DNA from: Malacoraja senta
Lineage: Eukaryota
Direction: 5' to 3'
Assembly (NCBI GenBank): GCA_038087875.1
Contig: CM075996.1
Location: 4,156,001-4,220,000 of the forward strand
DNA length: 64,000 nt
Shown here: piece by piece, positions 12,801 to 15,800 of the stretch
Layout of the letters: every line of letters starts with the position of its first letter
Numbering within the stretch: the stretch's first letter is position 1
Position numbers and translations under genes: made by a program
The notes under the pieces: model-generated
Databases searched by the model: none
Told to the model about the DNA's origin: nothing
What the model saw: the letters and a program-made list of their open reading frames with translations, nothing else

Positions 12801-15800
12801 CCAATCACAGCAGAGTCAGAATTATATATAGACAAGGAACTGCAGATGCTGCTTTTTTTTCTTCTTTTTCTTTTAAAGGACAAAGTGCTGGAGTAACACA
12901 GTGGGTCAGAAGACAGCACCTCTGGAGAACAAGGTAGGTGACGTTAGATACAAAATGCTGGAGTAACTCAGCGGGACAGGCAGCATCTCTGGATAGAAGG
13001 AATGGGTGACATTTCGCTCGAGACCCTTCTTCAGACCGAGTCAGAGGAGAGGAAGACACAGAGATAAGGAAGGGTAAGGTGTGAAAACAAGATATCAAAA
13101 GAGAATTGATCATTGCTAGCTCAGAGAAGGTGGCAACAAAGCAAAGAGAGATCAAATGTAATCGGAGGGGGGGGGCAGCCAGACCGGTCGGAGAACTGGG
13201 AAGGGGGAGGGATGGAGAGAGGGGGAAAGTAATGGTTATTTGAAGTTAGAGACGTCCATATTCATACCGCTGGAGTGTAAGCTGCCCAAGCGAAATATGA
13301 GGTGCTGTGTTTCATTGCTGTACGGACACAAGTTGTTGTCAGTTTAGTTTTGTTTGGAGATACAGCAATTGAAACAGGCCTTTTGGCCCACTGCGTCCAC
13401 ATCGACTAGTTCCATCCTACACACACTAGGGACAATTTACAGAAGCCAATTAACCTACAAACCTGCGCTTCTTTGGAATGTGGGAGGAAACCAGAGCACC
13501 CGGAGAAAACCCACGCGGTCACAGGGGGAGCACGGGTGCCAGGGGCTATGGGGAGAAGGCAGGAGAATGGGGTTAGGAGGGAGAGATAGATCAGCCACGA
13601 TTGAATGGCGGAGTAGGCTTGATGGGCCGAATGGCCTAATTCTGCTCCTCTCACTTAAGAGCGTACAAACTCCATACAGACAGCAGCCGTGTAGTTGTCT
13701 GAGCAAGTGTAAAAGCTCCATGTACCTCTCCCCGAAATATGGGTATTGCACCAATGGCCTTGTGAAGGGCTTCAACCTCCTGCGCAGGCCCAACCATGAG
13801 AGATGTTCCTGTGTCCACGATCGCCTGGCAACCGCCCTTGCACAAGGTCAACTGGGTGCCTACAGTCACCCTGCAGGGTTTGCAGGAAGGAGGAAAGAGC
13901 AAAACAAGGAAGAGAGACATTTTGAGAACTATTGTAACAGGAACAGATTAAGATGACTCATTTTTTAAAGTTCAGTTTAGAGATACAGCGCGGAAACAGG
14001 CCCTTCGGCCCACCGAGTCTGCACCGACCGGCTATCCCCATGCACAAGGCACGGTGGCGCAGCGGTAGAGTTGCTGCCTTACAGCTCTTGCAGCACCGGA
14101 GATCCGGGCGCTGTCTGTACGGAGTTTGCACGTTCTCTCCCTGTGACCCCGTGGGTTTTCTCCAAGATCTTCGGTTTTCTCCCACACTCCAAAGACGCAC
14201 AGGTTTGTAGGTTAATTGGCTTGGTACAAGTGTAAAAATTGTCCCTAGTGGGTGCAGGATCACGTGCGGGGATCGCTGGTCAGCGTGGACCCGGTGGGCC
14301 GAAGGGCCTGTTTTTGCACTGTATCTCTAAACTAAACCAAGTAGAATTAGGCCATTCGGCCCATCAGGTCTTCTCCGCCATTCAATCATGGCTGATCTAT
14401 TTCTCCCTCCCAACCCCATTCCCCTGCCTTCTCCCCACAATTGACACCCGTACTAATCAAGAATCTATCCATCTCTGCCTTAAATATATCCACTGACTTA
14501 ACTGCCACTGCCTTCTGTGGCGAACCATTCCACAGATTCACCACCCTCCGACTAAAGACATTCCTCCTCATCACCTTCCTAAAGGTACGTCCTTTGATTC
14601 TGAGGCTGTGAACCCTAGTCCTGGACTCTCCCTCTAGTGGAAACACCCTGGTCTTACTGGTCAGCTTTGATTTGCCAAAAGGCCCGACACGTGACGTTCA
14701 AGTAGTGGAAGTCTCCGGTGTAATACTTGGAGTCCACGCCACCCAGCAACAACTCCCCACCTGGCTGTGTGCTCGGATTCCTGGAACAGAAGACAGCAGG
14801 AATGTTAGAAAAATACGCAGATATAGAGGGGGGGGTGGGGGGGGGGGGGGGAGGAAAATGAAGGGAACAAAATACTCAGTAGGAAGGAACTGCAGGTGCT
14901 GGTTTAAACCGTAGACACAAAATGCTGGAGCAACTCAGCGGGACAGGCAGCATCTCTGGAGAGAAGGGATGGGCGACGTTTCGAGACTCAAAGGGTCTCG
15001 ACCCGAAACATTGCCCATTCCTTCTTCAGTCTGAAGAAGAGTCTCGACCCGAAACGTTGCCCATTCCTTCCTCAGACTGAAGAAGAGTCTCGACCCGAAA
15101 CATCGCCCATTCCTTCTTCAGACTGAAGAAGACGTCTCGACCCGAAACATCGCCCATTCCTTCTCTCCAGAGATGCTGCCTGTCCCGCCGAGTTGCTCCA
15201 GCATTTCGGGTCCATCTCCGAGCAAAATACTCCGCAGGTAACGCTCACCTGTTCAGGTAAAAGGAGAAGATGTCTCCCTCCAAGAGTTTCTGTTTCATCA
15301 TGTTATCAAAGACAGGGAGGACCCCATCAACGGAGATGGTTGGGTAAGCCATGCCAAGGATCCCGTCGAATTTTGCAGCAATGAAAGTGAACCCTGGCTG
15401 TGTTGACGGCCTCAGCAAAGATCTGGTTTGGGGTCTTCATGTTACCGATCTAGAAGTCAAAGTGAAGCAAGATCAGACTCTGAGACCAGACATCTAGACC
15501 ATAACAAGATCAGTCATCTAGACCAGAACAGCCCAACGGGCCCTTCGAGCCAGAGTCGGTGCTGAACACAACGCCAAGACCAATTCTTACCTGCCTGCAC
15601 GCAATCCACCCCCCCCCCCCCCCCCCCCGCATTCCCAGCACATCCATATTTAGTGTAGTTTAGAGATACAGCTCGGTTTCGACCTAGGACATTTGTGGAT
15701 GCTCAAAGCTTATCCAAGGTTGAAGACAGAACCCAGTGTTATAGGGATGGGTCACGAGGATGAACAGTCCCGCCATCCCGGAAATTAACCTTGTAAACCT

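Follow-up and report, generated by a model that had tools for sequence, protein, structure and literature searches.

The window, the whole 64,000-nt stretch of Malacoraja senta DNA that was analysed (GCA_038087875.1, contig CM075996.1, forward-strand positions 4,156,001 to 4,220,000), carried on its minus strand a nine-exon pepsin-family gene running from 28061 to 6656. Exon 1 (28000..28061; 62 nt) encoded a signal-peptide-like sequence, 95% identical to residues 1-21 of the homologue P0005, and exon 2 (19824..19983; 160 nt) encoded the propeptide (PF07966; 27.3 bits, cut-off 20.5). The DTGS motif was located in exon 3 (18988..19111; 124 nt), the flap motif YGSGS in exon 4 (16997..17115; 119 nt) and the DTGT motif in exon 7 (13726..13870; 145 nt). 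Exon 5 (15249..15449) matched the Pfam Asp family (PF00026; E 1.3e-15), and exon 6 (14658..14780; 123 nt) encoded TCRAFW where most orthologues have TRQAYW. Exon 8 (12124..12222; 99 nt) was followed by the coding part of exon 9 (6656..6817; 162 nt to the TAG), which showed no substitution relative to the contig of sequencing run X1 (see below). In the 397-aa reading of the gene, DTGS lies at residue 95, the flap at residue 140 and DTGT at residue 282; with both D-T-G motifs, the flap tyrosine motif and the A1 propeptide all present, the predicted product belongs to the pepsin-like A1 aspartic proteases.

Splice sites were canonical for all eight donors and for seven of the eight intron acceptors. 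The original prediction that all exons other than exon 5 are open held for the reading frames but not for the exon 9 acceptor, as the assembly has AC in place of AG at 6818..6819 (minus strand), behind a poly-C tract (CTCCAC/ATCACC, junction at 6818/6817). The next AG would start the exon at 6808, in frame, dropping three codons (ITK); the I-T-K at the start of exon 9 was kept in all 12 Logan skate proteins. The exon 8/9 junction was also abnormal in the RefSeq models of Amblyraja radiata and Leucoraja erinacea (QLPKFG-TV in P0121 and P0122; P0123 ends without exon 9), and such junctions suggest a poly-C tract that is hard to sequence. A pepsinogen-like last exon occurred elsewhere in the genome as five identical-scoring tandem copies on contig C5293 and one copy on C3482, and an X1 contig at depth 108 that touches exon 9 resembled this multicopy family.

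Assignment to napsa and genomic neighbourhood

In the part of the gene-family study available (PMC13389413), napsa is set apart from ctsd by gene neighbourhood, phylogeny alone having failed to separate the two; akt1s1 is listed in the gar and lungfish regions that carry napsa, and the napsa-type neighbours given in its supplement file 2 are akt1s1, emc10, kcnc3 and lrrc4b. The AKT1S1 family (PF15798) matched only at C20:4,062,168-4,066,142, about 96 kb from the 3' end of the window gene. By synteny with this one marker, the gene is assigned to napsa and cathepsin D to a separate locus. A family search for EMC10, in which the control also matched nowhere, and a scan of the 20 flanking 10-kb loci (200 kb) for Kv-channel and nuclear-receptor motifs both ended without a match and were uninformative.

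The tree placements were obtained with subsets of the homologues. In a midpoint-rooted tree of 30 rows, a chosen subset of 120 listed matches, the gene was sister to skate proteins in a 'cathepsin D-like' clade of sharks and rays that a 99/97 split divides from ctsd. In a 21-row tree its neighbours were the proteins of the Amblyraja/Leucoraja cluster, Rhinoraja branching outside them, a placement that points to a probable rajid skate. It resembles cathepsin D (human 1lya, rat 5ux4) in its A1 fold as judged by sequence, its exon layout and its DTGS and DTGT motifs. A locus on contig C3 could be matched to shark cathepsin D across all nine exons, the frame staying constant within the coding parts that matched, and was a better match to shark ctsd than the window gene. 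The earlier label, cathepsin D/napsin-like, was thus narrowed, the napsin half being favoured by synteny and the cathepsin D half falling to the separate locus on C3. No second copy or haplotig of the gene was present among the 8 and 45 matches obtained in the genome, and the gene is predicted to be single-copy.

Compared with chondrichthyan napsin A (RefSeq 'cathepsin D-like'; XP_032869403.1 of A. radiata, XP_055519253.1 of L. erinacea and XP_078286842.1 of Rhinoraja longicauda), the gene shared 91-93% identity with the rajid cluster and 87% with Rhinoraja, a length of 397 aa and nine exons; it differed by a frameshift found in this assembly only and by lineage changes including T171, C253-R254-A-F256 and T364. 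Mammalian napsin A has a C-terminal extension with RGD, whereas the gene described here has no RGD and ends in GFAAAV, as in other chondrichthyan orthologues.

Several other features were recorded in the surroundings. A (CA)n-type repeat of about 7 kb lies immediately left of the window (L010:~790-7690), an L1/Tx1-like retrotransposon, whose endonuclease-RT frame is open over 1,232 aa and is preceded by another frame open over 650 aa or more, occupies L020:4376-9999 on the minus strand, and a Tc1/Sleeping Beauty-like transposase frame is open over 313 aa at L029:5803-6741 (minus strand). The L1/Tx1-like element is probably young. A run of 200 N was found in 4 of the 20 flanking loci (L010-L029); these are either scaffold gaps or withheld stretches, and if they are gaps, the region is fragmented.

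Exon 5 as assembled and in the sequencing runs

Bounded by ag/ATC at 15449 and AG/gt at 15249, exon 5 measured 201 nt in the assembly and 200 nt in runs X1 and X2, and at each of the seven further aspartic-protease loci that the genome yielded (L002-L008) the equivalent exon fitted 200 nt between AG and GT, bearing out the proposed surplus of one nucleotide. With skate orthologues as queries, tblastn placed the frame change between 15405 and 15400, where the minus-strand letters 15413-15393 read GAG GCC GTC AAC ACA GCC AGG. The surplus base is one of two A (15403..15404, minus strand), which the assembly gives as AA and both X1 and X2 as one A (TT and T on the plus strand). The insertion site had been given correctly, but the restored V-K-Q had not, since the runs read GTC ACA CAG, that is V-T-Q. 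Translation of the shifted frame gave 25 wrong residues followed by TGA (15327..15329, minus strand), past the DTGS of exon 3, ahead of the DTGT of exon 7 and 78 nt upstream of the exon 5/6 junction, in agreement with the premature stop described earlier; the predicted 195-aa product would contain the first catalytic Asp only.

Four of the 24 public runs listed were compared over 15180-15600, as contigs in which minor alleles are collapsed, and two of them (X1 and X2) covered the site; X23 lacked coverage at that point and X24 contributed no contig. Among the runs listed for the exon, none was an RNA run. Run X1 was the best match (0.85 of words, with 88% of the run read); its 359-nt contig, at depth 25.5, spanned 15180-15536 (357 nt) with no substitution and one gap, the omission of 15403. 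Run X2, from another organism about 92-94% alike in exon 5, likewise did not contain 15403. The depth behind the omission was 25.5 of 25.5 in X1 and 10.8 of 10.8 in X2. Both runs read E-A-V-T-Q-P-G at the site, where the nearest skate proteins have EAVAQPG; EAVKQPG is the form in rays and sharks that are more distant. When 15403 is left out, the nine exons form a CDS of 1,194 nt, encoding 397 aa and a stop, which is the length of all 12 listed Logan skate proteins and of the R. longicauda and Pristis proteins. Reads without the extra base, named at the outset as the sign of a consensus error, were therefore what both covering runs contained, at the level of contigs.

These contigs bear on the possibility that the gene is a unitary pseudogene that became fixed in the species only recently, its earliest lesions being the frameshift in exon 5 and the loss of the exon 9 acceptor. 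Two apparent lesions are indeed present in the assembly, and R253C, Q254R, Y256F and P364T fall at conserved sites. Against it, X1 was identical over 1,050 of 1,050 letters bar two gaps and had an intact exon 5 at full depth, the catalytic motifs, the flap and the splice sites other than the exon 9 acceptor were canonical, and exon 5 had a low ratio of replacement to silent changes (see next section), so that fixation of such a pseudogene is highly improbable. The contigs speak less directly to a genuine null allele, either heterozygous or carried by the assembled animal alone, in which a 1-nt slippage insertion would lead to removal of the mRNA by nonsense-mediated decay, as a minor allele can hide behind contigs and X1 may come from another animal. 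Nishishita et al. are said to have described the human NAPSB pseudogene in 2013, and NAPSB is a duplicate copy. The two cases are alike in that a napsin gene has a disabling change, and differ in that the gene here is single-copy by the present searches and its lesion was not seen in the run contigs.

A real insertion might also be rescued by splicing to a cryptic in-frame CAG (15398..15400, minus strand), giving a protein 17 residues shorter. Frame arithmetic confirmed that this site keeps the frame at a cost of 17 codons, as had been proposed, with 149 nt remaining and the phase unchanged. Its pyrimidine tract is weak, with 55% C+T and 25% T where the normal acceptor has 80% and 50%, and the rescue requires the insertion to be real. 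The 17 lost residues include an F-x-E-A stretch that all 19 aligned homologues share, and because this conserved stretch would be lost, a folded enzyme from the cryptic splice is unlikely. Taken as an explanation of the locus, such splicing has very little probability.

Constraint and lineage-specific replacements

Between the window gene and X2, exon 5 showed 5 replacement changes over 155 sites and 8 silent changes over 43 sites, a ratio of about 0.17, calculated on 66 codons, a small sample that includes both branches and is blind to very recent loss. Exon 5 did not show the ratio near 1 of neutral evolution. The dN/dS check called for earlier was carried out on exon 5 against X2.

Along the whole protein, gene-specific replacements numbered 14, compared with 8 for the nearest skate protein, a difference that was not significant (p = 0.29) and that counts against a null allele. 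Five of the 14 (H107R, R253C, Q254R, Y256F and P364T) fell on columns invariant in 12 orthologues, the corresponding share on two comparison branches being 3 of 39 (p = 0.023 in a post hoc Fisher test), and this partial excess at conserved columns counts in favour of one. P364T was confirmed by run X1. Residues 256 and 364 presumably line prime-side subsites, going by pepsin anatomy. In exon 6, the change from TRQAYW to TCRAFW would add an unpaired Cys253. F256, R309 and T364 were shared with A. radiata RefSeq models and absent from the 12 Logan skate proteins, which may reflect convergence, an old allele or model errors.

A broader form of loss can be envisaged, in which constraint on napsa is weakening in this skate lineage, with a segregating null allele, an exon 9 acceptor that is lost or shifted by three codons, the replacements R253C, Q254R, Y256F and P364T marking loss or re-tuning, and cathepsin D covering. 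We consider this unlikely. The literature found on napsin, cathepsin D and cartilaginous fish, in the parts covered, reports no loss of napsa in skates.

Source of the surplus base and implications

A second 1-nt discrepancy was located past the stop, in the putative 3' UTR (6471..6472, plus strand), where the assembly has C and runs X1 and X11 have CC. Among the four runs compared over 5990-6900, X1 covered 6085-6204 and 6245-6817 with no substitution and one gap, the extra C behind 6471, and the same extra C was found in X11, from another organism. Run X22 had no insertion listed at 6471; by eye, its joint letters were one base longer at the same place. The fourth run, X7, contributed no contig. 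Both X11 and X22, from other organisms and RNA by guess only, reached depth 67-170 over portions of the 3' region outside the coding part.

Over the 1,050 nt compared in total, the assembly and X1 therefore differed by no substitution and two one-base indels, of which the 15403 indel had been chosen for its oddness and only that at 6471 is an independent case. Both were run-length changes between 1 and 2, and each time the assembly differed from both X1 and a relative. Because substitutions are commoner than indels in natural polymorphism, consensus error fits this pattern better than polymorphism. A rough Poisson estimate for finding two indels but not one substitution between haplotypes over this length was 0.001-0.003, a figure that assumes a diversity of 0.05-0.4% and 1 indel per 8 SNPs and is inflated by ascertainment. 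Another haplotype with two indels and no substitution would thus be unusual, which, together with the run-length nature of both changes and the agreement of relatives with X1, argues against a null allele.

A candidate local cause is a (GAGAGAGAGGGG)n array in intron 8 (10362..12057, plus strand; 1,696 nt or 1.7 kb, 99% G+A). The two indels lie 3.3 and 3.9 kb from it, and the exon 9 acceptor also falls within 3.3-3.9 kb. In the part of the human T2T polishing report available, most of the 218 loci with low HiFi coverage were GA-rich, and homopolymer corrections made up 512 of the 993 small edits (10.1101/2021.07.02.450803). The present case resembles long-read homopolymer errors near GA-rich loci in its 1-nt run-length differences, its false frameshift and the GA array nearby, and differs in that the runs here are only 1-2 nt long. 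In the same assembly RAG1 was open over 1,044 aa, and the L1-like ORF about 40 kb away was open over 1,232 aa. Both open frames speak against errors at a rate of 1 in 500 across the whole genome, so that an explanation by error needs a local cause. Few long reads may have spanned the 1.7-kb array, which would produce a local dip in coverage, and such a dip could leave raw-read homopolymer miscounts in the consensus within a few kb of the array. The same open frames show that the assembly can be accurate, a point in favour of a null allele, for which loss of the gene would be tolerated because the lysosomal role would fall to cathepsin D on C3, whose nine exons were matched with no shift of frame within them.

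Weighing these points, the extra A at 15403/15404 very probably reflects an error of the consensus, napsa being otherwise intact and single-copy. Among the three explanations offered by the original prediction, an assembly error was supported by both covering runs, a fixed young pseudogene was contradicted by X1, and a null allele confined to the assembled animal or haplotype has a small probability. Without the error, the gene is predicted to encode a normal pepsin-family preproprotease of 397 aa in which both catalytic aspartates are present. Should the allele prove real, it would amount to a knockout of napsin A that arose naturally in a cartilaginous fish, and would be modestly interesting for the role of the enzyme in a lungless vertebrate. 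If the surplus base is an error, single-base lesions elsewhere in this assembly would be suspect where they lie next to long GA-rich arrays, and surveys of gene loss among aspartic proteases that use it would miscount napsa as lost.
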